Of a stretch of 39,429 bases of DNA, positions 2,281 through 31,446 are shown in pieces. The position numbers and the translations under genes are program-made. Each line of letters starts with the position of its first letter. The first letter of the stretch is position 1. The stretch comes from Candidatus Bilamarchaeaceae archaeon (GTDB lineage: Archaea; Micrarchaeota; Micrarchaeia; Anstonellales; Bilamarchaeaceae). The notes under the pieces were generated by a model. The model saw only the letters and a list, made by a program, of their open reading frames with translations. It ran no database searches and had not been told where the DNA came from. The DNA is taken from NCBI GenBank assembly GCA_035290745.1, contig DATDTS010000070.1, positions 1 through 39,429 of the forward strand, read 5' to 3'.

Positions 2281-4218
2281 ATGAATTTAACTCAAAAAAT
2301 ATTAAAGGAACATTTGGTAGAAGGTGAAATGGTACAAGGAAAAGAAGTTGGAATAAAAATAGATCAAGTCCTAACCCAGGATGCAACTGGAACCATGGCC
2401 TTCTTGGAGTTTGAGGCACTAAATATGCCAAGCATACACGCAGAACTTGTAGTTAGTTATGTTGATCACAACATGCTTCAAACGGATTTCAAAAATCCAG
2501 ATGACCATATTTTCTTACAAACAGCAGCATCAAAATTTGGTGCATATTTTTCAAAACCAGGAAATGGTATTTGCCACCAAGTTCACCTAGAAAGATTTTC
2601 TGCTCCAGGTAAAACTCTTTTGGGAAGTGATTCACATACTCCAACCTGTGGAGGAATGTCTTCATTGGCAATTGGTGCTGGTGGATTAGATATTGCATTA
2701 GCAATGGGTGGTGGGGCTTATTATTTTCCAATGCCACAAATCATAGGTGTAAAACTAACTGGGAAATTATCTGATTGGGTTACAGCAAAAGATGTTATTC
2801 TTGAAATGAACAGGCGTGTAACTGTGAAAGGAGGAAAAGGAAAGATATTTGAATATTTTGGGCCTGGAGTTGCAACACTATCAGTTCCTGAAAGATCTAC
2901 AATAACTAATATGGGTGCTGAATTAGGTGCAACTACAAGTATTTTCCCATCAGATGAAATGACTTTAAAATATTTAAAAATGCAAGGAAGAGAAGAGGTC
3001 TATAAATCTCTCTCAGCGGATTCTGAAAGTGATTATGATTCCATAATTGAGATAAATTTAAGTGAACTTGAACCACTTATAGCAAAACCACACAGTCCTG
3101 ATAATGTTGTACCAATAAAAGAAGTTGCAGGAATAAAAGTTGATCAGGTTATAATTGGTTCATGTACTAACTCTTCTTTTCGTGATTTGATGTCCGTTGC
3201 TTCTATCCTCAAAGGTAAGAAAGTAGCTTCTGGAGTAAGTTTTGCTGTTGTTCCTGGTTCAAAACAAGTTTATGAGCAGATTGCAAGAAATGGTGCATTG
3301 GCTGATTTAATTGCAGCAGGTGCGAGAATTCTTGAAAGTGCTTGTGGCCCATGCATTGGTATGGGTCAAGTTCCTCGTTCTGGTGGAGTTTCAGTAAGAA
3401 GTTTTAACAGAAACTTTAAAGGTAGATGTGGTAGTACTGATGCAGGTGTTTACCTTTCAAGTCCAGAGGTTTGTGCAGCATGTGCACTTACTGGAGTGAT
3501 CACTGATCCAAGAGATCTTGGTGTATATACGGAAATTCAATGGCCTGCAAAACTAGAGATTGACGATTCTATGATTTTAAAACCTTCATCTGATCCAGAG
3601 AATGTTGAAATAATAAAAGGGCCAAATATAAAATCATTACCAGAAATGAAACCTCTTCAAAACACCATTAGCAAAGAAGTTTTGTTAAAAGTTGGGGATA
3701 ACATTACAACAGACCATATTATGCCAGCAGGTGCAGAGATTCTTCCATTGAGATCGAATATCCCCGAAATATCAAAATATACTTACAGGATTATTGATAA
3801 AGAATTTCCGCAAAGGTGTTTGGAAAAAGGAGGAGGGATTATAATTGGTGGAGAGAACTATGGCCAAGGATCGTCAAGAGAACATGCAGCAATTGCACCT
3901 CTTTATCTTGGTATTAGGGCAAAGATTGTCAAATCGTATGCAAGAATCCATCTTCAGAATTTGATTAATTGGGGCATTTTACCATTAGAATTCGTGAATC
4001 CTGTAGACTATGATAAAATTGATCAAGGCGATGAACTGGAATTAGTAGATATTTTAAATTCACTAAAGCATGGAAAGCCAGTTAAGGTGAAAAACGTAAC
4101 TAAAAACTACGAATTTGAAGCAAAGTATACGTTGTCAAAAAGGGATATTGATACTTTAATTGTTGGCGGGTCAATTAATTATGTGAAAACTATGCAAACT
4201 CAGAAGATCACAGCTTAA
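2281..4218 (+). CDS. acn: aconitate hydratase (aconitase family, single-chain 645 aa)
   Basis: Fe-S ligand and substrate motifs GSDSHTPTCGG, IGSCTNSS and CGPCIGMG. The swivel-domain end is present. AGGTGA lies 6 nt upstream of the ATG. Confidence 0.9.
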   Translation: MNLTQKILKEHLVEGEMVQGKEVGIKIDQVLTQDATGTMAFLEFEALNMPSIHAELVVSYVDHNMLQTDFKNPDDHIFLQTAASKFGAYFSKPGNGICHQVHLERFSAPGKTLLGSDSHTPTCGGMSSLAIGAGGLDIALAMGGGAYYFPMPQIIGVKLTGKLSDWVTAKDVILEMNRRVTVKGGKGKIFEYFGPGVATLSVPERSTITNMGAELGATTSIFPSDEMTLKYLKMQGREEVYKSLSADSESDYDSIIEINLSELEPLIAKPHSPDNVVPIKEVAGIKVDQVIIGSCTNSSFRDLMSVASILKGKKVASGVSFAVVPGSKQVYEQIARNGALADLIAAGARILESACGPCIGMGQVPRSGGVSVRSFNRNFKGRCGSTDAGVYLSSPEVCAACALTGVITDPRDLGVYTEIQWPAKLEIDDSMILKPSSDPENVEIIKGPNIKSLPEMKPLQNTISKEVLLKVGDNITTDHIMPAGAEILPLRSNIPEISKYTYRIIDKEFPQRCLEKGGGIIIGGENYGQGSSREHAAIAPLYLGIRAKIVKSYARIHLQNLINWGILPLEFVNPVDYDKIDQGDELELVDILNSLKHGKPVKVKNVTKNYEFEAKYTLSKRDIDTLIVGGSINYVKTMQTQKITA

Positions 4219-4245
4219 GATTTGTGACATACATTTAAATCTGAA

Positions 4246-4518
4246 TTGTCTCAAATAATTATCGTGCAACTCCGAAGGAGAACTTTACATACAAATCCCG
4301 AGCCACTGAAACCAAGGGTTGTTGATTTAGATAGAAAATACACACTTAGTGACGCATCTGAAATAACTGGTTTTTCAATAGACAAATTAAGAAGAAGATT
4401 AAGAAGTTATAAGGAAGCGTTTCGTGATCCTTTTATTGGACATCTTTTGATTGGTGGGGAAACGGTTTTTCGTATTTTAACCGGAATTGGAACAAAGTGG
4501 GAGGATAAATTTGATTAA
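4246..4518 (+). CDS. small hypothetical protein with a possible helix-turn-helix
   Basis: Track ORF with a non-ATG start (TTG at 4246 or GTG at 4264). The segment YTLSDASEITGFSIDKLRRRL resembles an excisionase/MerR-type HTH. No other support. Confidence 0.3.
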   Translation: MSQIIIVQLRRRTLHTNPEPLKPRVVDLDRKYTLSDASEITGFSIDKLRRRLRSYKEAFRDPFIGHLLIGGETVFRILTGIGTKWEDKFD

Positions 4519-4586
4519 TCCAACTTTACTATTATTCAAAAACATTCATTCTATCTTTTTAATCCTTTTCTTTGATTTTACTCATT

Positions 4587-5903
4587 ATGTTTAAAGTAGT
4601 TAAATTTGGGGGAAGTTCATTAGCATCTGCTGACCTATTCAAACAAGTTGCAGAAATCATTCAATCAGATAAAGACAGAAAAGTCGTTGTAGTTTCAGCA
4701 CCTGGAAGATCAAATCCAAACGATTCTAAAACAACTGACCTGCTAATTAAAATCTCTGAAAATGTTTTAAGTGGGAAGGCATATTCCAAAGAATTTGATG
4801 AAATTAAAGAGAGATTAATTAATTTGGAAAAAGAACTAGATCCTAAAACACCTGTTGCAAATTTAATGACGAGTGAACTTCAAAAAAGAATTAAGAAAAG
4901 GGAAAAAAACGCAATTATTGCATTAGGTGAAGAATTTTCAGCAAGGCTTTTAGCTGATTATCTGGAGGGTTCTGTTTATTTAGATCCAAAAGATGCTAAT
5001 TTTCTGATTGATGAAACCCCCTATGGGAAAAGATATGTACCAAAATCATCATTTTTCTCAATTAGACAGGTATTCAATAAATTAAAAGATAAAATAGTTA
5101 TTTTTCCTGGTTTTTTTGGAATTGATTCAAGGGGAAGAATAAGGGTACTTCAAAGGGGTGGAAGCGATTACACAGCATCAATCCTATCAGTTATTTTAAA
5201 TGCAGATTTACATGAGAATTTCACTGATGTTGATGGTATCTCAGTTGTTGAACCTGATATTCTGCCAGATACAGAGAAAATAAGATTTATGTCACTTTAT
5301 GAATTAAGCGAATTAACCTTAGATGGGTCTTTTGGTGTTTTTCAGGATTTTGCAGTTGCCCCTCTTGCGCGAAATAAAATTCAAATTCATGTTTTATCTA
5401 CAAAATTGCCAAAAGGTGAAGGGACAAGAATTGTTGAAACTTTACCTAATAATTTACCTAAAATAAGAGGAATTGCCTGTAAAAAAGACTTTGTAATATT
5501 TGATATTTTCAAATATGGTCTTGATCAGGAAATCGGCCTAAAACTAGAATTAGAAAAAATATTCGCAAATCACAAGCTCTCAGTTGGTCGTGTTCCAAGT
5601 TCTTTGAATTCAATGTCCATTATTCTGTCATGTAAATTGGATCTTTCAACCCTAAGTCAGGAAATAAAAGATGCAGTTAAACCAGATGAGCTAAGAGTTA
5701 TCAATGATGTTGCTTTGGTTTCAGTTGTAGGGGAGGAACTTGAAAAAACAAAAGGAGTTGGAATGAGAATCCTAAAATCAATTTCTGATCATGATATAAA
5801 CATTCTCAAGGCAATGTTTGATGGTATCAACTTCGTTTGTGTTATTCCAAATAATGAAGCAAAAAAAGCTGTAAAAGCAATTTATGAGGAGTTTTTTGCT
5901 TAG
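4587..5903 (+). CDS. aspartate kinase
   Basis: Amino-acid-kinase N-terminus VVKFGGSSLA and VVVVSAPGRSN..TTD. C-terminal ACT-like repeats (VALVSVVGEEL.., INFVCVIPNNEA). ATG at 4587 is preferred over the TTG at 4572 given in the track. Confidence 0.85.
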   Translation: MFKVVKFGGSSLASADLFKQVAEIIQSDKDRKVVVVSAPGRSNPNDSKTTDLLIKISENVLSGKAYSKEFDEIKERLINLEKELDPKTPVANLMTSELQKRIKKREKNAIIALGEEFSARLLADYLEGSVYLDPKDANFLIDETPYGKRYVPKSSFFSIRQVFNKLKDKIVIFPGFFGIDSRGRIRVLQRGGSDYTASILSVILNADLHENFTDVDGISVVEPDILPDTEKIRFMSLYELSELTLDGSFGVFQDFAVAPLARNKIQIHVLSTKLPKGEGTRIVETLPNNLPKIRGIACKKDFVIFDIFKYGLDQEIGLKLELEKIFANHKLSVGRVPSSLNSMSIILSCKLDLSTLSQEIKDAVKPDELRVINDVALVSVVGEELEKTKGVGMRILKSISDHDINILKAMFDGINFVCVIPNNEAKKAVKAIYEEFFA

Positions 5904-6019
5904 AATCTACATTCATCGTCTTTTATCGAACTAGGTTACGATCATATTTATAAATCTTATTAACACCATTTTCTATGCTTCTTTATATCCTAAATAATCT
6001 GTTAGATATGGTGATAAGT

Positions 6020-7234
6020 ATGTCTGAAAAAATATCTATGAAAGATGGCAAATTGCATGTGCCTGATATGCCAACTATTCCTTATATCTCTGGTGATGGG
6101 ATTGGTGTTGACATTTGGCCAGTTGTCCAAAAAATAGTAGATTCTGCTGTTCATAAAGCATATAAAGGAAAGAAAAAAATTAACTGGAAAAAGGTTTTAG
6201 CAGGGGATGAAGCAAATGAAAAGCTTGGTACCTTTTTGCCTGATGATACAATTAACTCAATTAAAGAGTATTTAGTTGCAATAAAAGGCCCTTTAACAAC
6301 TCCAGTAGGTGGCGGCCACAGATCCTTAAACGTGACTATGCGCCAAGTCTTGGACTTATACTGCTGTGTAAGGCCAGTTAGATGGTTCAATGGTGTTCCA
6401 AACCCAATGAAATCTCCTGAAAAACTTAATGTTGTAATATTCAGGGAAAATACAGAAGATGTTTATTCTGGTATTGAATTCAAGCAAGGAACAGAAGAAG
6501 CAAAAAAAGTTATTGATTTTATATCAGCTTTTGGCAAGAAAATAAGGCCTGATTCAGGTGTTGGAGTCAAACCAATTTCAATAACCGGAACTAAAAGATT
6601 AGTTGAAGCTGCAATTAATTATGCGATTAATAACAAGAAAAACATTGTCACTTTAGTTCACAAGGGAAATATCATGAAATTTACCGAAGGCTCATTTAGA
6701 GAATGGGGTTATGAAGTAGCTAAGGAAAAATTCGCTGATAAGATAATCACAGAACAAGAAGTCCTTGAGAAACATGAAGGTAAAATTCCACATGGAAAAA
6801 TAATGATAAACGATAGGATTGCAGATGCAATGTTCCAACAATTATTATTACGGCCAGATGAATACCAAGTAATTGCCACAATGAACCTTAATGGTGATTA
6901 TATAAGTGATGCATGTGCTGCACAGGTTGGTGGTTTGGGAATTGCACCAGGTGCAAATATAAACTACAAAACAGGACATGCATTATTTGAGGCAACTCAT
7001 GGAACTGCCCCAAAACATGCAGGTCAGGATAAAGTTAACCCAGGTTCATTACTTCTTTCAGCGGTTATGATGCTTGAATATTTAGGTTGGAAAGAAGCAG
7101 CACGAAGTGTTGAAAGTGCATTTGAGAAAACAATTGATAAAAAAATAGTAACCTACGATTTAGCAAGGCAAATGGAAGGTGCAAAAGAGGTAAAATGCTC
7201 AGAATTCGGTAATCATATCATCTCTAACCTGTGA
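6020..7234 (+). CDS. icd: isocitrate dehydrogenase (NADP-type, prokaryotic homodimeric family)
   Basis: Motifs [28 protein letters not shown] and [27 protein letters not shown]. The ATG at 6020 ([15 protein letters not shown]) fits the family N-terminus better than 5975. Confidence 0.9.
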
Positions 7235-7239
7235 GAAAA

Positions 7240-7482
7240 ATGGTAACTATTGATTTAGCTTTAACTGAAGCATGTCAAACTATAAAATCTATAGCACTTT
7301 TCTTTTTAGTTATCTTTCTTATTCAAACTTTTATAGTTTATATAGAGGGAAAAGAAAAAGCACACAAAAAATGGCTTCTGCCAGCGGCTGTTGTTTTTTT
7401 ACTTTTATTAGTTTACCTCTTTACACAAAATATACTGAATATGATTGCAGGAATTGTAAAATTAGAATTAGCTCAATGTTAA
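7240..7482 (+). CDS. small two-helix membrane protein, hypothetical
   Basis: Hydrophobic ORF between icd and aclB. ATG at 7240 lies inside the GTG-started track ORF. No homology recognised. Confidence 0.3.
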   Translation: MVTIDLALTEACQTIKSIALFFLVIFLIQTFIVYIEGKEKAHKKWLLPAAVVFLLLLVYLFTQNILNMIAGIVKLELAQC

Positions 7483-7492
7483 AGAAATTAAG

Positions 7493-8797
7493 GTGATACC
7501 TATTGCAAGAAGAAAAATAAGAGAAATTGATGGTCGAAATATGTTTGGTGGCTACTTTAATATTCCTCTAGATGGGGTTTTAGTTTCTCAAGAAACAGAT
7601 ATTGAGAACCTTCCTGCAAAATATTACTGGTTAAAATCTAAAAAACTTGTTGTTAAACCAGATATGCTAATAGGAAAAAAAGGAAAGAACAATCTAATCC
7701 TTCTAAATGCTGATTTTTCTCAAGCAAAAAAATTCATTAAAGAAAACATGAATAAGCAAATCACAATTGGTAAAGTAACTGGTAACTTAACGCATTTCAT
7801 AATCCAGCCATTTGTTCCTCATGAGGAAGAATACTTTGTTTCAATTATGAGTGGTAGGGATTCAGACACAATCTACTTTTCTGATAAGGGGGGCGTAGAT
7901 GTAGAAGAAAATTGGGATAAAATAAAAAGCATTTCAGTTCCAATCCTAGGTGAGTTTCCTGAAGTTGAGCTAAAAAGCACTCTCACATCATTTCCAAAGA
8001 ATCATCAAAAACAATTATTTGATTTTATAAAAAGGCTTCACATGTTTTTTGTTGATTATGATTTCTCATACCTTGAATTAAATCCTTTCTCTTTTGTTAA
8101 AAACCTTCCATTACCTCTTGGGTTTGTTGGAGAATTAGATGATTGTGCAGAATACAAGAATTGTAAAAAATGGGGAGATCTAAAATTCCCTCAGAGTTTT
8201 GGGAAAACTCTAACAAAAGAAGAGAATTTCATAAAAGACCTTGACTCAAAAACAGGCGCTTCCCTAAAATTAACTATTCTAAATCCAAATGGGAAGGTTT
8301 GGCCAATGGTTGCTGGCGGTGGAGCATCTGTAATCTACGCTGACACGATAGTTGACCTTGGTTTCAGTAATGAGCTTGCTATTTATGGAGAATACTCCGG
8401 AGACCCTAATGAAGAAGAAACCTATCAATATGCAACAACAATACTTGATCTTATGACAAGAGAAAAAAGAAAAGATGGCAAAATTCTTATAATTGGGGGA
8501 GGAATTGCAAATTTTACTGATGTTGCTAAAACTTTTCAGGGGATTGTAAGAGCATTACGTGATTATAAGGAAAAACTACAGAAAAATAATGTAAAAATAT
8601 ATGTAAGACGTGGAGGCCCGAATTATGAGATTGGTCTTAATCTTATGAAAAAACTCGGAAATGAATTAGGTGTTCCTATGGAAGTATACGGTCCTGAGAC
8701 TCATATGACAAAAATAGTTTCGCTTGCTTTGATGGAATCAGGAATTCAATCAAAAGGGAACGGTAAATCGGTTCTCTCCTTGAATCGTCAAAGGTGA
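7493..8797 (+). CDS. aclB: ATP-citrate lyase, small (SCS-beta-like, ATP-grasp) subunit
   Basis: ATP-grasp and succinyl-CoA-synthetase-beta-like sequence. The N-terminus IARRKIREIDG resembles ACL N-termini as I recall them. Placed directly upstream of aclA with a 4-nt gap. The start is non-ATG (GTG at 7493) and uncertain by a few codons. Confidence 0.8.
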   Translation: MIPIARRKIREIDGRNMFGGYFNIPLDGVLVSQETDIENLPAKYYWLKSKKLVVKPDMLIGKKGKNNLILLNADFSQAKKFIKENMNKQITIGKVTGNLTHFIIQPFVPHEEEYFVSIMSGRDSDTIYFSDKGGVDVEENWDKIKSISVPILGEFPEVELKSTLTSFPKNHQKQLFDFIKRLHMFFVDYDFSYLELNPFSFVKNLPLPLGFVGELDDCAEYKNCKKWGDLKFPQSFGKTLTKEENFIKDLDSKTGASLKLTILNPNGKVWPMVAGGGASVIYADTIVDLGFSNELAIYGEYSGDPNEEETYQYATTILDLMTREKRKDGKILIIGGGIANFTDVAKTFQGIVRALRDYKEKLQKNNVKIYVRRGGPNYEIGLNLMKKLGNELGVPMEVYGPETHMTKIVSLALMESGIQSKGNGKSVLSLNRQR

Positions 8798-8801
8798 TAT
8801 T

Positions 8802-10622
8802 ATGAAAGATTTATTTACAGATAAAACTCAGTGTTTCATATACAATCTAAAACCAATTCCAATTCAACGAATGCTTGATTTTGATTATCTTTGCAGGAGA
8901 ACAACACCAAGTGTAGTAGCTGTTATTGCACCAGGTAAAGCAGGCTCTCTCAAAGCTTTTTTTGGTGCAAAAGAAATATTAATTCCAGTTTATGATAGCA
9001 TAAAAGAAGCTGTAAAACTAAATCCTTCTGTTGATGTTTTTGTAAATTTTGCATCTTTTAGAAGTGCTTATGACTCTTCTTTGGAGGCACTTGAGTCCGA
9101 TTCGATCAAAACTGTTGCAATTATTGCTGAAGGAATTCCAGAAAGACTAACCAAACAGCTTATAGCAGTTGCAAAGAAAAAGAACAAATGTATTATAGGC
9201 CCTGCAAGTGTTGGTGGGTTATCAGCAGGTAAATTTAGAATAGGAAATACTGCTGGAACAATAGAAAATATAATCGCATGCAAGCTTTATCGGCCAGGCT
9301 CAGTTGGTTTTGTATCAAAATCCGGAGGCCTTTCAAATGAAATGTTTAATGTTATCTCAAGAAATGCTGATGGAATTTACGAAGGAATTGCAATTGGTGG
9401 GGATGCATATCCTGGTTCAAGATTAATAGATCACATCTTACGATTTGAGAAAATTCCAGATATAAAAATGATTGTTGCACTTGGAGAAGTTGGAGGTACC
9501 GAGGAATATGAAATTACAGATGCACTGAAAACTAACAAAATTACTAAACCAGTTGTGATGTGGGTTACTGGAACCTGTGCAAAAGTTTTCCCTGGAGAAG
9601 TCCAATTTGGGCATGCTGGTGCAAAAACCGGCGATGAGAAGGGCTCTGCTGATGCAAAGAACTCTGCCCTAAGAGAAGCAGGAGTTATCGTTCCAGATTC
9701 TTATCAGGATTTTGATGTCAAAATAAAACATACTTTTGATTCTTTGAAAAAACAAGGAAAAATAAAAGAAATCAAAGAACCCGGATTTCCAGAAATGCCT
9801 TTGGAATATACAGTTGCATTAAAGCAGGGTAAGATAAGAAAAGCAACAAACTTTATATGTACAACCTCTGATGATCGCGGTGATGAGCCACATTATGCCG
9901 GAATTCCTATGACTAAAATGATTGAGGAGAATTATTCATTAGGAGATGTTATTTCACTTTTATGGTTTAGAAAAAGACTTCCGTCATATGCAAGTAAATT
10001 TATTGAAACTGTTCTATTGATAGTAGCTGATCATGGCCCATGTGTAAGTGGTGCACATAATGCTATTGTCTCATCAAGAGCTGGAAAAGATCTTGTTTCT
10101 TCTCTTTGTTCTGGTTTATTAACCATTGGTCCAAGATTTGGTGGAGCAATTGATGATTCTGCGCGGTTCTTTAAACATGCTTGTGATTCAAAAACCCAAC
10201 CAGACGAATTTGTTGAAGACATGAAGAAAAAAGGGATCAACATTCCTGGAATTGGCCATAGAATCAAATCAGCAAAGAACCCTGACAAAAGAGTTGAGAT
10301 ACTTAAAAATTATGCAAAAAAGCATTTTCCACATACAAAATATTTGGATTATGCTCTTTTAGTTGAAAATGAAACACTAAAGAAAGGTGACAACCTTATA
10401 TTAAATGTCGATGGCACCATTGCAGTTTTATTTTTGGATTTGATTGATGGATGTAAGATTTTTTCAAATGAAGAATTTGACTCTATTGTTGATGTTGGCT
10501 ATTTAAATGGGTTATTTGTTCTGGCTCGTTCAATTGGTATCATGGGCCATGTTTTTGACCAAAAGAGGCTGAAACAACCATTGTACAGGCATCCATGGGA
10601 CGATGTATTATTTTTAGAGTAG
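8802..10622 (+). CDS. aclA: ATP-citrate lyase, large (SCS-alpha-like plus citrate-synthase-like) subunit
   Basis: CoA-binding/SCS-alpha part with phosphohistidine loop VQFGHAGAKTG. C-terminal citrate-synthase-like domain ending LYRHPWDDVLFLE. AAAGGTGAT lies before the ATG. Confidence 0.9.
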   Translation: MKDLFTDKTQCFIYNLKPIPIQRMLDFDYLCRRTTPSVVAVIAPGKAGSLKAFFGAKEILIPVYDSIKEAVKLNPSVDVFVNFASFRSAYDSSLEALESDSIKTVAIIAEGIPERLTKQLIAVAKKKNKCIIGPASVGGLSAGKFRIGNTAGTIENIIACKLYRPGSVGFVSKSGGLSNEMFNVISRNADGIYEGIAIGGDAYPGSRLIDHILRFEKIPDIKMIVALGEVGGTEEYEITDALKTNKITKPVVMWVTGTCAKVFPGEVQFGHAGAKTGDEKGSADAKNSALREAGVIVPDSYQDFDVKIKHTFDSLKKQGKIKEIKEPGFPEMPLEYTVALKQGKIRKATNFICTTSDDRGDEPHYAGIPMTKMIEENYSLGDVISLLWFRKRLPSYASKFIETVLLIVADHGPCVSGAHNAIVSSRAGKDLVSSLCSGLLTIGPRFGGAIDDSARFFKHACDSKTQPDEFVEDMKKKGINIPGIGHRIKSAKNPDKRVEILKNYAKKHFPHTKYLDYALLVENETLKKGDNLILNVDGTIAVLFLDLIDGCKIFSNEEFDSIVDVGYLNGLFVLARSIGIMGHVFDQKRLKQPLYRHPWDDVLFLE

Positions 10623-10775
10623 AGAGTCCTGTGGAGAAGTGAACGTAGTTCACCAAGATCCATGGGACGACGTATTATTTTTGGATTAGCAAAATCCCAT
10701 GGAGAAGTGAACGTAGTTCACCAAGATCCATGGGACGACGTATTATTTTTAGAGTAGAGAGTCCCTTGGAGAAAA
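10591..10775 (+). repeat. tandem repeat, period 67/68 bp, about 2.7 copies, starting inside the last 11 codons of aclA
   Basis: Copies start at 10591, 10658 and 10726 (ATCCATGGGACGAYGTATTATTTTT..). Each full unit carries an extended hairpin (10627-10667 and 10696-10734) with core GTGAAC-GTA-GTTCAC (10639-10653 and 10707-10721), followed by a T5 run. Confidence 0.9.
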
Positions 10776-17257: not shown

Positions 17258-17365
17258 AATTAAAAACGCTGAGGGCCAGATCGGAACCGCAGGGGGACAC
17301 CCCCTTCAGTTTGACGCTCTTCCTGATTTCCCCGACTTTTGAATTAAAAACGCTGAGGGCCAGAT
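17258..17365 (-). repeat. direct duplication (24/24 nt, 84-nt spacing) of the tRNA 3' exon plus oligo-T terminator
   Basis: AATTAAAAACGCTGAGGGCCAGAT occurs at 17258-17281 and again at 17342-17365. On the minus strand each copy reads AUCUGGC-CCUCAGC-G-UUUUUAAUU. Confidence 0.9.
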
Positions 17366-17644
17366 TTTCAACATTGCACCTCTTGGTTGCAAGGGGTGCG
17401 GGGCCCGCTGGGGTCCTGCTTTGAACTGGCGATCCTTTCGGACACGCTTCCCGAACCGCTGGGAAACTACGTTTCCCCTCGGTTTGAGGTTCCCGATGGA
17501 ATTCCATTCCATGGGCCCATTGAACACGGTTCAATTGGGCTTCCTGATCCCCTTCCTTTTGGGATTCAGAAAAAGTTCCAGGCCTACGCTTCTAATTGAA
17601 GATTCAATTAAAATGTGCGCACTACCAGGTTATGCGACCTCAGC
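17351..17644 (-). tRNA. interrupted class II tRNA gene, best reading tRNA-Ser(GGA), 294-nt locus with at least two long insertions
   Basis: Minus strand. The acceptor stem GCUGAGG (17644-17638) pairs 7/7 with CCUCAGC (17358-17352). Discriminator G at 17351 is followed by U5. U8 is present. The D arm is canonical: GCAU-AACCUGGUA-GUGC (17635-17619). The T stem GCCAG (17430-17426) is followed by UUCAAA, then a 55-nt insertion, then U-CUGGC (17364-17359). The only canonical anticodon arm is AUGGA-AUGGAAU-UCCAU (17512-17496), with anticodon at 17505-17503. The variable-arm region is unresolved. Confidence 0.5.
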
Positions 17645-27296: not shown

Positions 27297-27304
27297 TTTA
27301 TATA
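27297..27304 (+). promoter_or_regulatory. TATA-box-like TTTATATA upstream of the tRNA-Leu leader module
   Basis: TTTATATA lies 27-34 nt upstream of the first G of the minihelix at 27331. That spacing is the usual archaeal TATA-to-start distance. Confidence 0.4.
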
Positions 27305-27330: not shown

Positions 27331-27369
27331 GCAGGGATCTTATTGAACATTTTGTTCAATTCTCCCAGC
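27331..27369 (+). other. 39-nt leader minihelix copying the acceptor strands of the downstream tRNA
   Basis: Reads GCAGGGA-TCTT-ATTGAAC-ATTTT-GTTCAAT-TC-TCCCAGC. An 11-nt spacer AGTTCATTCAT (27370-27380) follows, then tRNA position 1 at 27381. Confidence 0.6.
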
Positions 27370-27380
27370 AGTTCATTCAT

Positions 27381-27709
27381 GCAGGGATGACGGAGCGGTC
27401 AAAAGCTTTTTGGCTACTTATAAACATTTGCCAAAAACCTTGGAAAAAGGCATATTGCAATTCTTTAGTGTGGCTGTCCAAACGTGCTAGGTTGAGGTTC
27501 TTTTGGATTAGCAAGTCCGTTTTTGGACTCGCTTTTCCTAAAAAGCGAGAGCCTAGTGGCTTAGTGCTTGCGAGAAACTTTTGACTTCGGTCATTCATAC
27601 GCCAAAAGTTTCATCAAAAGGCGTAATGTTCGCATAAGTTCGAACCTTCGCCAACTTTGTTGGTGAATTTTTAACGAAGCACAGCGAAGTTAAAACCTCT
27701 CTCCCTGCA
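27381..27709 (+). tRNA. interrupted class II tRNA gene, best reading tRNA-Leu(GAG), 329-nt locus with three long insertions
   Basis: The acceptor stem GCAGGGA pairs 7/7 with TCCCTGC (27702-27708), with discriminator A at 27709. The 5' end GCAGGGATGACGGAGCGGTCAAA has a Leu/Ser-type D loop. D stem ACG closes with CGT only after skipping 79 nt (27404-27482). The anticodon arm is CTAGG-TTGAGG(T) at 27487-27498, closing with CCTAG at 27552-27556 after about 53 nt. The anticodon GAG is at 27494-27496. The long variable arm is TGGCTTAGTGCTTGC. T stem GAGA(27572-27575)+G(27689) pairs with CTCTC after about 113 nt. Predicted mature length is 84 nt. The T loop TTAAAAC is atypical (A at position 56), so the 3' part is the weakest. 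Confidence 0.55.
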
Positions 27710-29213: not shown

Positions 29214-29351
29214 TCAGTCACACGCGCATTTGTTTACTTGATATTCTTCCCTGTCTTCAAACTCCTGTTTTTTACCAACATTCCAATTTTGGACTGGTCT
29301 AAAGTATCCAACTATTCTACTATATACCTCTGTTTCTTTTCCACATTTCAT
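29214..29351 (-). CDS. stand-alone glycyl-radical C-terminal segment of NrdD (45 aa, not in the ORF track)
   Basis: My translation is MKCGKETEVYSRIVGYFRPVQNWNVGKKQEFEDREEYQVNKCACD. It contains the class III RNR glycyl-radical motif (SRIVGY) and the conserved RPVQNWNxGK. AAAGGTGATT lies 3 nt upstream of the ATG. Confidence 0.75.
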   Translation of the reverse strand: MKCGKETEVYSRIVGYFRPVQNWNVGKKQEFEDREEYQVNKCACD

Positions 29352-29375
29352 TTAATCACCTTTATTTCAATTGGA

Positions 29376-29407
29376 GGTGAGCAGTGAACGTAGTTCACTC
29401 AATCACC
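29376..29407. repeat. extended hairpin with core GTGAAC-GTA-GTTCAC spanning the stop codon of the large nrdD ORF
   Basis: GGTGA-GC-AGTGAAC-GTA-GTTCACT-CAA-TCACC. The same 15-nt core as at 10639-10653 and 10707-10721. The core here is at 29384-29398. Confidence 0.85.
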
Positions 29408-31446
29408 TTTTCGATTATTTCTTCTGATTGGTGAGGACATGTAAAATGTTCCCCTTTAATATAACCATGTTCCGGACATACACTAAACGTCGGGGTTATG
29501 GTGAAGTAAGGTAGTTTGAAGTTAAATGCAATTTTTTTGACTAATTTCATTGTTGTTTTCCAGTCATCAATTCTCTCGCCTAAAAACGAATGAAGTACGG
29601 TTCCTCCGGTATACAAAGTTTGGAATTCGTCTTGATGTTCCAAGGCTTCAAATACATCTTCTGTAAAATTAACTGGAAGATGAGTTGAATTAGTATAATA
29701 TGGTCTTTCTCTAGTGCCAGCAGTTATTATATCCGGATACAATTCCCTATCTTTTTTTGCAAATCTATACGTTGCAGATTCACATGGCGTAGCTTCAAGG
29801 TTGTAAAGATTTTGTGTTTCTCCCTGGAACACCTTAATCTCACGTCTTATAAACTCCATCACCTCAACTGCAAAAATCTTTCCCTTTTCTGTTTCTATTC
29901 CTTCTCCCATAAAATTTAGTAAAGCTTCATGCATTCCATTAATTCCAATTGTTGAGAAATGGTTTTGATAAGTTCCAAGAAACTTCTTTGTGAATGGCAT
30001 TAATCCAGCTTTAACATTTGCTTCAACCACCTTTCTTTTTATTTCAAGTGATTCCTTTGCAATTTTTAATATATACCCAAGCCTTTGAAAGAATTCTTCT
30101 TTAGTCTTAGCAATATACCCTATTCTCGGAAGATTTATTGTAACAACTCCTATGCTTCCAGTTTGATCAGCTGCCCCAAAAAGTCCGCCCATCTTATTTT
30201 TTAACTCTTTCAGATCAAGTTGAAGTCTGCAGCACATACTTCTAATATCAGATGGTTTTAGAGTACTGTTTATAAAATTCTGGAAATATGGTATCCCATA
30301 TTTTGCCGTCATTTCAAATAACAATCTTGCATTTTCTGATTCCCAGTTGAACTCATTTGTTATATTATAGGTTGGGATTGGATAAAAGAAAGCCCTTCCT
30401 TTTGCATCGCCTTCAATCATTACCTCAATAAATGCCTTGTTTATCATGTCCATTTCTTCTTGGCATTCACTATACGTAAATGTTTGTAGTTCTCCACCAA
30501 CAATTGCTGGTTCATCTTTCATATCTTCAGGCACTATCCAGTCAAAAGTAAAATTTGTAAATGGTGCCTGGCATCCCCATCTGCTTGGCACATTCAATGA
30601 AAAAACCAACATTTGAATATTTTGCTTTACTGTTTTGTATTCCAAGCCATCTTTTTTTATGAATGGTGCTAATAAGGTATCAACTGAGGAAAATGCTTGT
30701 GCTCCTGCATGTTCCATCTGCATTGTTCCTAAAAAATTCACCATTTGAACAACTGCAACCTCTAAATGTTTAGGTGGTAATGAACTGATCTTTTTTGGCA
30801 CACCACCAAACCCTGTTAATAATAAGTTTTTCAGTGACCATCCACAACAGTACCCAGTTACTCCGTACCCTAAATCATGAATATGCATATCACCATTTCT
30901 ATGTGCTTGGGCTACATTATCAGAGTAAATCTCATTAAGCGTATAATTTGCAATAATCTTTCCAGCAATATGAGACATCAAACCTGAAAAGGAATAATCA
31001 GAATTGCTGTTTTCATACACTCTCCAGTCAGTTTTTTTTAGGTATTCATCCATAGTATTCCTTACTTCTACAAATCCCCCTTGTATATTTCTAATCTTCT
31101 CATGCTGTTTTCTGTATAAAATATATCCCTTTGCAGTCTGGGCATATCCCTCTTTTATAAGTACTTTTTCTACTATATCTTGAATTTGTTCTACTGAACA
31201 TAATGCATTTTTACCATAAGCATTTTCCATTTCTTCAATTACTTTATTTGTGAGTTCGTCAGCTATCTTTTCCCCGAACTCTTGTGTTGTTTTAGCAGCA
31301 CTATAAATAGCATTTTTTATTCTTGTTTTATCAAATTTTACAATCCTCCCATCTCTCTTCTGTATAAACTGTGGTGTCTCAGATTTTGTGTTCATATTTT
31401 TCATCTCCATCTCTTTTGTGCATTTTATATTTTTAAAGGTTTCCAA
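29395..31446 (-). CDS. nrdD: anaerobic ribonucleoside-triphosphate reductase NrdD, large fragment lacking the glycyl-radical end
   Basis: ATP-cone (IQKRDGRIVKFDKTRIKNAIYSAA) and class III RNR core. The ORF ends ..FSVCPEHGYIKGEHFTCPHQSEEIIEKVIE, in the middle of the zinc-ribbon region. The true start is probably one of the ATGs at 31410, 31404 or 31395 rather than the TTG at 31446. Confidence 0.9.
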   Translation of the reverse strand: METFKNIKCTKEMEMKNMNTKSETPQFIQKRDGRIVKFDKTRIKNAIYSAAKTTQEFGEKIADELTNKVIEEMENAYGKNALCSVEQIQDIVEKVLIKEGYAQTAKGYILYRKQHEKIRNIQGGFVEVRNTMDEYLKKTDWRVYENSNSDYSFSGLMSHIAGKIIANYTLNEIYSDNVAQAHRNGDMHIHDLGYGVTGYCCGWSLKNLLLTGFGGVPKKISSLPPKHLEVAVVQMVNFLGTMQMEHAGAQAFSSVDTLLAPFIKKDGLEYKTVKQNIQMLVFSLNVPSRWGCQAPFTNFTFDWIVPEDMKDEPAIVGGELQTFTYSECQEEMDMINKAFIEVMIEGDAKGRAFFYPIPTYNITNEFNWESENARLLFEMTAKYGIPYFQNFINSTLKPSDIRSMCCRLQLDLKELKNKMGGLFGAADQTGSIGVVTINLPRIGYIAKTKEEFFQRLGYILKIAKESLEIKRKVVEANVKAGLMPFTKKFLGTYQNHFSTIGINGMHEALLNFMGEGIETEKGKIFAVEVMEFIRREIKVFQGETQNLYNLEATPCESATYRFAKKDRELYPDIITAGTRERPYYTNSTHLPVNFTEDVFEALEHQDEFQTLYTGGTVLHSFLGERIDDWKTTMKLVKKIAFNFKLPYFTITPTFSVCPEHGYIKGEHFTCPHQSEEIIEKVIE

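Follow-up and report, generated by a model that had tools for sequence, protein, structure and literature searches.

On a 39,429-nt contig of Candidatus Bilamarchaeaceae archaeon (GCA_035290745.1, contig DATDTS010000070.1; hereafter the window), a groundwater Micrarchaeota (DPANN), a 39-nt minihelix stands directly upstream of an interrupted tRNA-Leu(GAG) gene and reproduces the acceptor strands of that tRNA in its own flanks, and a second such module precedes a tRNA-Ser(GGA) gene on the opposite strand. The locus raises the question of whether a leader with so close a resemblance to an acceptor stem was selected for a tRNA-like function, or whether the resemblance arose in another way. An earlier note on this DNA had offered three hypotheses: a placeholder that pairs with the nascent 5' acceptor strand until the distant 3' strand is made, a processing or recognition signal, and the footprint of a mobile family of hairpins that are found in the insertions of the tRNA genes as well. 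The last of these fitted the evidence best. In the reading that we favour, and hold with about even confidence, each module is a copy of a lineage-specific family of tiny hairpin repeats, and the event that creates it locally duplicates the sequence beside it in direct–inverted–direct order; since the insertions copy whatever lies next downstream, the likeness to a tRNA seems to be a side effect of this origin.

Two modules and their interrupted tRNA genes

Both modules have the same architecture (Table 1), in which a 7-nt segment identical to the start of the downstream tRNA gene (X1, the original being X2) is followed by an inner hairpin core, an inverted copy of the segment (X') and a spacer. 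In module 1, the direct repeat comprised 2+7+1 nt (ATGCAGGGAT), and a strain variant of its spacer reads ATTTCATTCAT. The sequences and coordinates of the modules, their 11-nt spacers, the one base by which the 3' flank of module 1 departs from the tRNA-Leu 3' strand (an A.A mismatch) and the TATA-like box, all given in the earlier note, were confirmed. Its claim that the modules are not random also held: the 25-mer core matched twice in the window against 0.02 matches expected, with none of 100 shuffles reaching two or more, and both modules fold as a two-tier stem-loop with a minimum free energy (MFE) of −13.3 kcal/mol (z −3.9) for module 1 and −18.1 kcal/mol (z −5.7) for module 2. The inner loop measures 3–6 nt, and a 4x2 internal loop breaks the helix.

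ARAGORN and Rfam, run on the modules and the tRNA regions, recognised no tRNA anywhere in the window. After splicing by hand, ARAGORN called the 84-nt product of the first gene tRNA-Leu(GAG) and accepted the 82-nt product of the second, which is tRNA-Ser(GGA). An uninterrupted ortholog of tRNA-Leu(GAG), likewise situated downstream of rpoD, was found in a relative (L033:10672-10757; GCA_043827025.1). The spliced window gene is colinear with this ortholog, and alignment to it placed the four introns in the D-loop, at 37/38, in the T-stem and in the T-loop. As a control, a relaxed bulge–helix–bulge (BHB) motif was traced by hand for the T-loop intron. Because ARAGORN accepts the spliced sequences and a relative has the uninterrupted gene, the interpretation as interrupted tRNAs is correct. 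A permuted or split tRNA was rejected, since a complete colinear tRNA follows the module.

Table 1. Positions of the modules, their tRNA genes and further features of the window.
Feature	Position	Strand	Remarks
TATA-like box TTTATATA	27297-27304	+	26 nt 5' of module 1
Module 1	27331-27369	+	GCAGGGA-TCTT-ATTGAAC-ATTTT-GTTCAAT-TC-TCCCAGC
X1 of module 1 (GCAGGGA)	27331-27337	+	Upstream direct copy of tRNA-Leu positions 1-7
Inner core of module 1 (TCTT-ATTGAAC-ATTTT-GTTCAAT-TC)	27338-27362	+	7-bp hairpin and asymmetric internal loop
X' of module 1 (TCCCAGC)	27363-27369	+	Inverted copy of X; 6/7 Watson–Crick pairs with X1 or X2
Spacer AGTTCATTCAT	27370-27380	+	11 nt
tRNA-Leu(GAG)	27381-27709	+	Four introns; X2 (GCAGGGA) = 27381-27387
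Exons of tRNA-Leu(GAG)	about 27381-27403, 27483-27497, 27551-27575, 27638-27644, 27696-27709	+	3' strand TCCCTGC = 27702-27708; A73 = 27709
Module 2	17694-17656	-	GCTGAGG-TCTT-ATTGAAC-TGCTT-GTTCAAT-TC-CCTCAGC; 7/7 flank pairs
Spacer TCATTTCATTC	17655-17645	-	11 nt
tRNA-Ser(GGA)	17351-17644	-	Class II; at least three introns (anticodon stem, 37/38, T-loop); G1 = 17644; GCTGAGG of module 2 recurs from 17644
Third hairpin, ATTGAAC-N3-GTTCAAT	17519-17535	-	In the tRNA-Ser 37/38 intron; flanks GCCC/GGGC
Shine–Dalgarno site in split nrdD	29409-29349	-	AAGGTGA-TTGA-GTGAAC-TAC-GTTCAC-TGC-TCACCTC, 11 nt, AAGGTGA-TTAAATG
68-nt tandem units	10590-10775	-	CCATGGA-TCTTG-GTGAAC-TAC-GTTCAC-TTC-TCCATGG; same hairpin family
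tRNA-Arg(GCG)	about 24488-24378	-	Single D-loop intron; no module upstream

Modules in relatives and pairing of the flanks

Relatives were compared on contigs from aquifer metagenomes, found via SHMT and RpoD homologs and labelled L0xx; the RpoD homologs also assign the organism of the window to the Micrarchaeota. Identity to the window was 78% (L060), 67% (L061) and 65% (L068) for SHMT, and 88% (L035) and 63% (L070) for RpoD; L067 is a strain variant within the L061 lineage. Across these relatives the architecture was conserved and the sequence was not, and from one to at least four tandem modules preceded a tRNA-Ser or tRNA-Leu gene. Two tandem modules stood 5' of tRNA-Ser(GGA) in L060, where module B aligned as the ortholog of module 2 and had two C-to-U changes in X' that kept the pairing as G.U. 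Three stood 5' of tRNA-Ser(UGA) in L061 (tRNA at 9669-9769, with only one short intron) and one 5' of tRNA-Leu(UAG) in L068, while L035 and L070 had a module 5' of tRNA-Leu(GAG). Array length differed by strain, with units A-B-C in L061 and at least four units, A-B-C-B, in L067. No module was present at the L033 tRNA-Leu(GAG) ortholog or at either of the two tRNA-Arg genes, which speaks for its being dispensable.

The flanks followed the local tRNA throughout. Over nine modules, which came from the core search or from synteny and were not selected on flank pairing, X and X' paired at 59 of 63 positions (56 Watson–Crick pairs and three G.U). The acceptor of L061 is GCCGAGG/CCUCGGC, and each of its modules has GCCGAGG together with CCTCGGC, CCTCGCC or CCTCGTC; U3:A70 gives way to C3:G70 there, and the covariation of the flanks with the sequence that follows, which the earlier note had drawn from the two window modules, extends across lineages. 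In L070, X1 reads GTAGGGG and X2 GCAGGGG. Conservation of the core, claimed at the same time, held within the genome and for two other metagenomic archaea. Across lineages it did not: the inner hairpins differ among modules, except for the core shared by modules 1 and 2 and for L061-A and L068, whose hairpins are homologous, share the loop ACGAUU and differ by three fully compensated stem changes.

A strict mimicry of the acceptor stem could not be upheld. The segment copied in L068 corresponds to tRNA-Leu positions 6-12 instead of 1-7, so that acceptor mimicry depends on the position of the breakpoint, and the discriminator base is not conserved, the base after X' being A or U where tRNA-Ser has G. 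The direct repeat varied in length from 7 to more than 23 nt (8 to 25 nt among the modules tabulated for pairing) and reached further upstream in L068, where the duplication takes in the TATA box and the module may have its own promoter. In that contig the SHMT gene is preceded by tRNA-Leu(UAG) and then tRNA-Ser(UGA), with 7 nt between the two tRNA genes (L068:9520-9900, minus strand). The spacer directly 5' of X2 often ended in GTTC or GTTCAT (TTGTTC, CTTTGTTC, ACGTTCAT and ATTCGTTC, each followed by G, in the window, L050, L060 and L061), an ending that may mark the end of the element or a preferred junction. We take the frequent GTTC just 5' of X2 to resemble the target sites of IS91.

The inner hairpins bear on the possibility that a module is a miniature pseudo-tRNA, i.e., an internally deleted tandem copy of the adjacent tRNA gene that would retain positions 1-9, a T-loop remnant and positions 66-72, and whose number would have grown afterwards through unequal crossing-over. 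In module 2, the 3' half, GUUCAAUUC-CCUCAGC, matches G53-C61 of tRNA-Ser (GUUCAAAUC) at 8 of 9 positions and continues with positions 66-72, L061-B has GUUCACAUC, the arrays recombine between units, and partial duplicates of the 3' part of tRNA-Ser are also found downstream of the gene. However, the tRNA-Leu module has an interior of Ser type that does not resemble the T-loop of tRNA-Leu (GUUCGAACC), the inner hairpins of module 1, L050, L068 and L070 are unrelated to the T-arm of their own tRNA, and TGAAC/GTTCA hairpins occur far from tRNAs. Neither the L068 register nor the elements of L050 and the Shine–Dalgarno sites described below can be tRNA deletion products, which makes this origin improbable.

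Copies outside tRNA leaders

The same layout was found away from tRNA genes. A scan of the window for X/hairpin/X'/spacer/X with a hairpin of at least 7 bp, a spacer of 8–14 nt and Watson–Crick pairs only returned three loci against 0.003 expected; a loose scan in which G.U pairs were allowed gave three loci against 1.65 expected and does not discriminate. At the third locus of the strict scan, X2 is the Shine–Dalgarno sequence of a 45-aa open reading frame (ORF) that forms the C-terminal part of nrdD. This anaerobic ribonucleotide reductase gene is split into ORFs of 666 and 45 aa inside its CPxCG motif (FTCP/KCGKE; 29349-29434, minus strand), the 85 nt between them hold a stop codon, the hairpin element, the Shine–Dalgarno sequence and an ATG, and the same split was seen in every strain locus where the region was recovered. 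Intron and BHB models for nrdD were rejected: no consistent BHB was found, and only removal of 85 nt (joining CP to KCG) or of 47+5 nt restores the frame. Another Shine–Dalgarno/start site, at L061:3081, showed the layout with a 23-nt perfect direct repeat, and both its inner and outer stems are inverted copies of the native Shine–Dalgarno/ATG region.

In L050, an identical 20-nt core flanked by GTGGAAA and TTTCCAC, and followed after 6 nt by GTGGAAA, lies 117–167 nt upstream of an archaeal 16S gene. In L056, the core constitutes the anticodon loop CUCUUA and the first intron hairpin (37/38 intron) of tRNA-Lys(CUU). These two, the former recovered through the architecture scan, were the genuine cases besides L055 among 24 matches in a metagenome scan for the core. 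The 13 matches in a scan of GTDB genomes were all due to chance, none having complementary flanks, and a scan of viral contigs gave no match. What is copied is either a Shine–Dalgarno site or the purine-rich 5' end of a stable-RNA gene. The tRNA specificity that the earlier note had supposed is not supported, and what the note had named as refuting it was observed in part, with the core in the 16S leader and in the tRNA-Lys anticodon loop and intron, and the layout at Shine–Dalgarno sites, but its expectation that the flanks match the neighbouring sequence was borne out in L050 and at the Shine–Dalgarno sites.

Behaviour of the hairpin family

The window contains six hairpins of the form TGAAC-N3-6-GTTCA against 0.21 expected, all of them in stems lengthened by complementary flanks. 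The hairpin in the tRNA-Ser 37/38 intron sits within a 46-nt segment that is missing from the L060 ortholog, a gene with fewer introns than that of the window, and the two therefore represent a filled and an empty site. Likewise, L023 and L066 have a ~205-nt insertion of six hairpins, two of the TGAAC/GTTCA type (L023:14866-15070, upstream of a PAS-domain gene), at a site that is empty in the window (between 31573 and 31574). The left flank of this insertion was entirely different in L066, indicating a rearrangement junction. Copy number was polymorphic as well: the 68-nt unit, in which the final ~27 nt of the ATP-citrate-lyase gene, stop codon included, are repeated, was present twice in the window, L014, L015 and L017 and once in L016 and L018. 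No transposase or fixed terminal repeat turned up, although transposases were not searched for.

Duplications of tRNA 3' ends were seen at several genes. A perfect 24-nt duplication of the tRNA-Ser 3' end and its T-rich trailer (ATCTGGCCCTCAGCGTTTTTAATT) lies at 17258-17365 (minus strand), with the copies 84 nt apart; the intervening segment resembles the gene's 3' part in shortened form, and L060 has a degenerate counterpart. At L061:12437-12875 (plus strand), the 3' end and trailer of a tRNA with acceptor GCGGTTG/CAACCGC are duplicated after a two-tier hairpin, and the D-loop intron of this gene contains a 57-nt tandem repeat in five copies (two in L062). At L056:1425-1600, a second copy of the 3'-terminal ~28 nt of tRNA-Val(CAC) follows 92 nt downstream, and hairpins lie in the interval.

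Folding and probable processing of the leader

The TATA-like box upstream of module 1 recurs in L035 at the same 26-nt spacing, although the sequence in between differs, which suggests that the module is part of the primary transcript; between module 1 and tRNA-Leu there is no further TATA-like sequence. Every X1..X2 segment had the closed module as its MFE fold, with an advantage of about 2.2 kcal/mol over the X':X2 hairpin, and the closed X1:X' form is transcribed before X2. For the whole 388-nt pre-tRNA-Leu, the MFE fold was instead the swapped pairing, of X1 with the tRNA 3' strand and of X' with X2; the four strands are thus nearly isoenergetic, and kinetics should decide the state. The proposed placeholder role is at odds with the fold of the X1..X2 segments, as X' is already locked by X1 in a form that is both favoured and made first, and it is equally at odds with L061, where three modules precede a tRNA whose only intron is short.

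No BHB or relaxed hBH/HBh' motif was common to module 1, module 2 and the L060 modules, either in a BHB scan or on register-by-register inspection, so that cleavage by RNase P at X2, which would discard the leader, is the probable default route. The same result bears on whether the module could be an intron at the junction of the acceptor stem and position 8-9, with X1 as the true 5' exon and 50 nt (27338-27387 or an equivalent register) cut by the epsilon2 splicing endonuclease. Non-canonical introns and a broad-specificity epsilon2 endonuclease are known from the host clade (PMC3239211, PMC4033280). In support of an intron, the core is a real exon-intron junction in the L056 tRNA-Lys(CUU), other introns of the same genes hold the same hairpins, transcription is predicted to start near X1 in the case of module 1, and the swapped pairing of X1 with the 3' strand is the MFE fold of the full precursor. 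Yet the only symmetric BHB candidate (a CAUG/UAUG helix) occurs in module 1 and L061 and not in module 2 or L060, and no BHB flanks the module, which unlike known archaeal BHB introns lies upstream of +1. A complete tRNA starts at X2, and ARAGORN recognises its spliced form with the module left out, so excision is not required; promoter candidates of L061 and module 2 lie about 17–35 nt upstream of X1, and cutting a 47-nt repeat unit (one X and the inserted segment) from nrdD leaves the frame broken. An intron is therefore very improbable.

Origin of the modules

A templated origin, which the earlier note had raised, remained the most economical reading. In the reading we favour, a hairpin family of the type TGAAC-loop-GTTCA would arise or spread with duplication of the sequence beside which each copy lands, in the layout D1 (X and 1–4 nt), inner hairpin, X', a spacer of 5–40 nt (mostly 11) and D2, the presumed intact original. 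A breakpoint at tRNA position 8-10 would make X and X' the two acceptor strands and give the element the appearance of an acceptor-stem minihelix. The underlying mutational mechanism would probably be serial template switching or gene conversion at the purine-rich 5' ends of highly transcribed genes. Once present, the element would become part of the 5' leader through transcription from the tRNA promoter, and its inner hairpin would nucleate X1:X' before X2 is made, neutralising the antisense X' and leaving the true 5' strand free for the 3' acceptor strand until RNase P removes the entire leader at X2. Elements would survive where the downstream copy leaves the gene intact and would be amplified by unequal recombination; units holding both X and X' would be self-neutralising, which would allow them to amplify in tandem and persist.

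Of the known systems, template-switch (quasi-palindrome) mutations share the reverse-complement copy of adjacent sequence, X' being complementary to X in all modules. Template switching can make or repair hairpin stems in one event, giving apparent compensatory changes (PMC8794818), and it is reported to be stimulated in highly transcribed DNA (PMC3820800). In contrast to such mutations, the inner hairpin recurs here at unrelated targets and in different organisms, the core of modules 1 and 2 and L050 is absent from their targets, so that a local template is insufficient, and a direct duplication is included with rather constant geometry (7-bp stem, spacer about 11 nt). MITE-, REP- and RPE-like repeats are likewise short, multi-copy hairpins dispersed at gene ends and inside RNA genes, with direct duplication of the target and with presence/absence and copy-number polymorphism. 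The elements described here differ from them in being only about 25–40 nt long, in a direct-repeat length that varies, with no target-site duplication of fixed length, and in that each copy also bears an inverted copy of its own target. Readings as IS200/IS605-, PATE-, Helitron/IS91- or CRISPR-like elements were rejected for the absence of their defining features.

Several observations weigh against the origin that we favour. Identical or homologous inner hairpins occur at different targets (modules 1 and 2 and L050; L061-A and L068), which a local template switch alone cannot explain, and an X' specific to its target is equally beyond a transposon of fixed sequence. At the rpoD-linked Leu(GAG) locus, modules persist in three of four lineages (those of the window, L035 and L070 having one), and at the SHMT-linked Ser/Leu cluster they do so in all four lineages where tRNA genes cluster next to SHMT; in L063, the fifth lineage with SHMT, no tRNA lies there. 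None was seen at about five class I tRNAs, for which not all upstream regions were read by eye. Module 2 and its L060 ortholog are more conserved than the flanking intergenic DNA, with X1 and S1 identical at 14 of 14 positions. Together, the persistence at these loci and the conservation of module 2 suggest that selection acts on the RNA or, at a minimum, that persistence depends on the structure.

The identical cores at unrelated targets and the persistence at two class II tRNA loci are why a functional cis-acting leader element for the maturation of stable RNAs is kept as a serious rival, although we judge it somewhat unlikely. Such a leader could be a decoy helix setting up a four-strand exchange (X1:X' and X2:3'-strand against X1:3'-strand and X':X2), or a stable 5' hairpin that protects class II pre-tRNAs and pre-rRNA or times their folding and processing. 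By analogy with Haloferax t-elements, it might also be a minimal 'punctuation' signal for RNase P and tRNase Z: in Haloferax volcanii, tRNase Z cuts the t-element upstream of 5S rRNA, and both enzymes act on t-elements (PMC4326828, PMC7714728). In addition to the persistence at the two loci while no module was seen at those class I tRNAs, the high rate of X:X' pairing, partly through G.U, the survival of inner hairpin pairing through three double changes between L061-A and L068, the nearly isoenergetic states of pre-tRNA-Leu and the presence of the same core in the 16S leader of L050 agree with a function.

Like t-elements and the minihelices that serve as RNase P substrates, the module has an acceptor-like stem of 7 bp that a hairpin closes, and it stands beside a stable RNA gene. 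It differs from them in having no T-loop or cloverleaf and no Rfam or ARAGORN signal, in a stack interrupted by an internal loop, in its variable discriminator base, and in a stem that copies the neighbouring gene instead of being a fixed structure. The leaders of split tRNA halves in Nanoarchaeum equitans also pair with tRNA-linked sequence in a DPANN archaeon (PMC4033280), but they do so in trans and form a BHB, whereas the module pairs within a single leader and forms none. Against a function also stand the copy number, which ranges from 0 to at least 4 with no visible consequence, the L068 register, and the presence of the same architecture at Shine–Dalgarno sites and gene 3' ends, where tRNA processing makes no sense; moreover, template switching as described above can yield apparent compensatory changes without selection.

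A broader departure from the origin by insertion and duplication that we prefer, in which the modules are not scars at all, is unlikely. They could then be (a) a purpose-built RNA device, with a decoy of a long-range helix that steers a near-isoenergetic exchange of four strands involving the acceptor stem or the rRNA processing stem and would govern the folding and processing of class II pre-tRNA and pre-rRNA in Micrarchaeota. Alternatively, they could be (b) the product of an undescribed target-templated insertion mechanism, in which a hairpin element on insertion writes both a direct and an inverted copy of its target.

Other features of the window

The tRNA-Arg(GCG) gene of the window was missed by both ARAGORN and Rfam. 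Aconitase, isocitrate dehydrogenase and a two-subunit ATP-citrate lyase are clustered at 2281-10622, a set that is associated with the reductive tricarboxylic acid cycle and is unexpected for a DPANN-type genome. A homology search with a neighbouring 95-aa ORF matched the query alone.

Implications

A convincing RNA 'mimic' with textbook covariation can stem from the way in which repeats are generated and need not reflect selection for a tRNA-like function, which calls for caution in covariation-based RNA discovery. A target-matched inverted flank is accounted for by no known transposition mechanism. If alternative (b) were true, insertion could supply stop, Shine–Dalgarno and start signals, and this would help explain both gene splitting and the disruption of tRNA genes in DPANN archaea. 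In this uncultivated DPANN lineage, a compact hairpin-repeat family reshapes the leaders, introns and trailers of tRNAs as well as an rRNA leader and gene junctions, and it may help to explain how highly disrupted tRNA genes and split genes accumulate.

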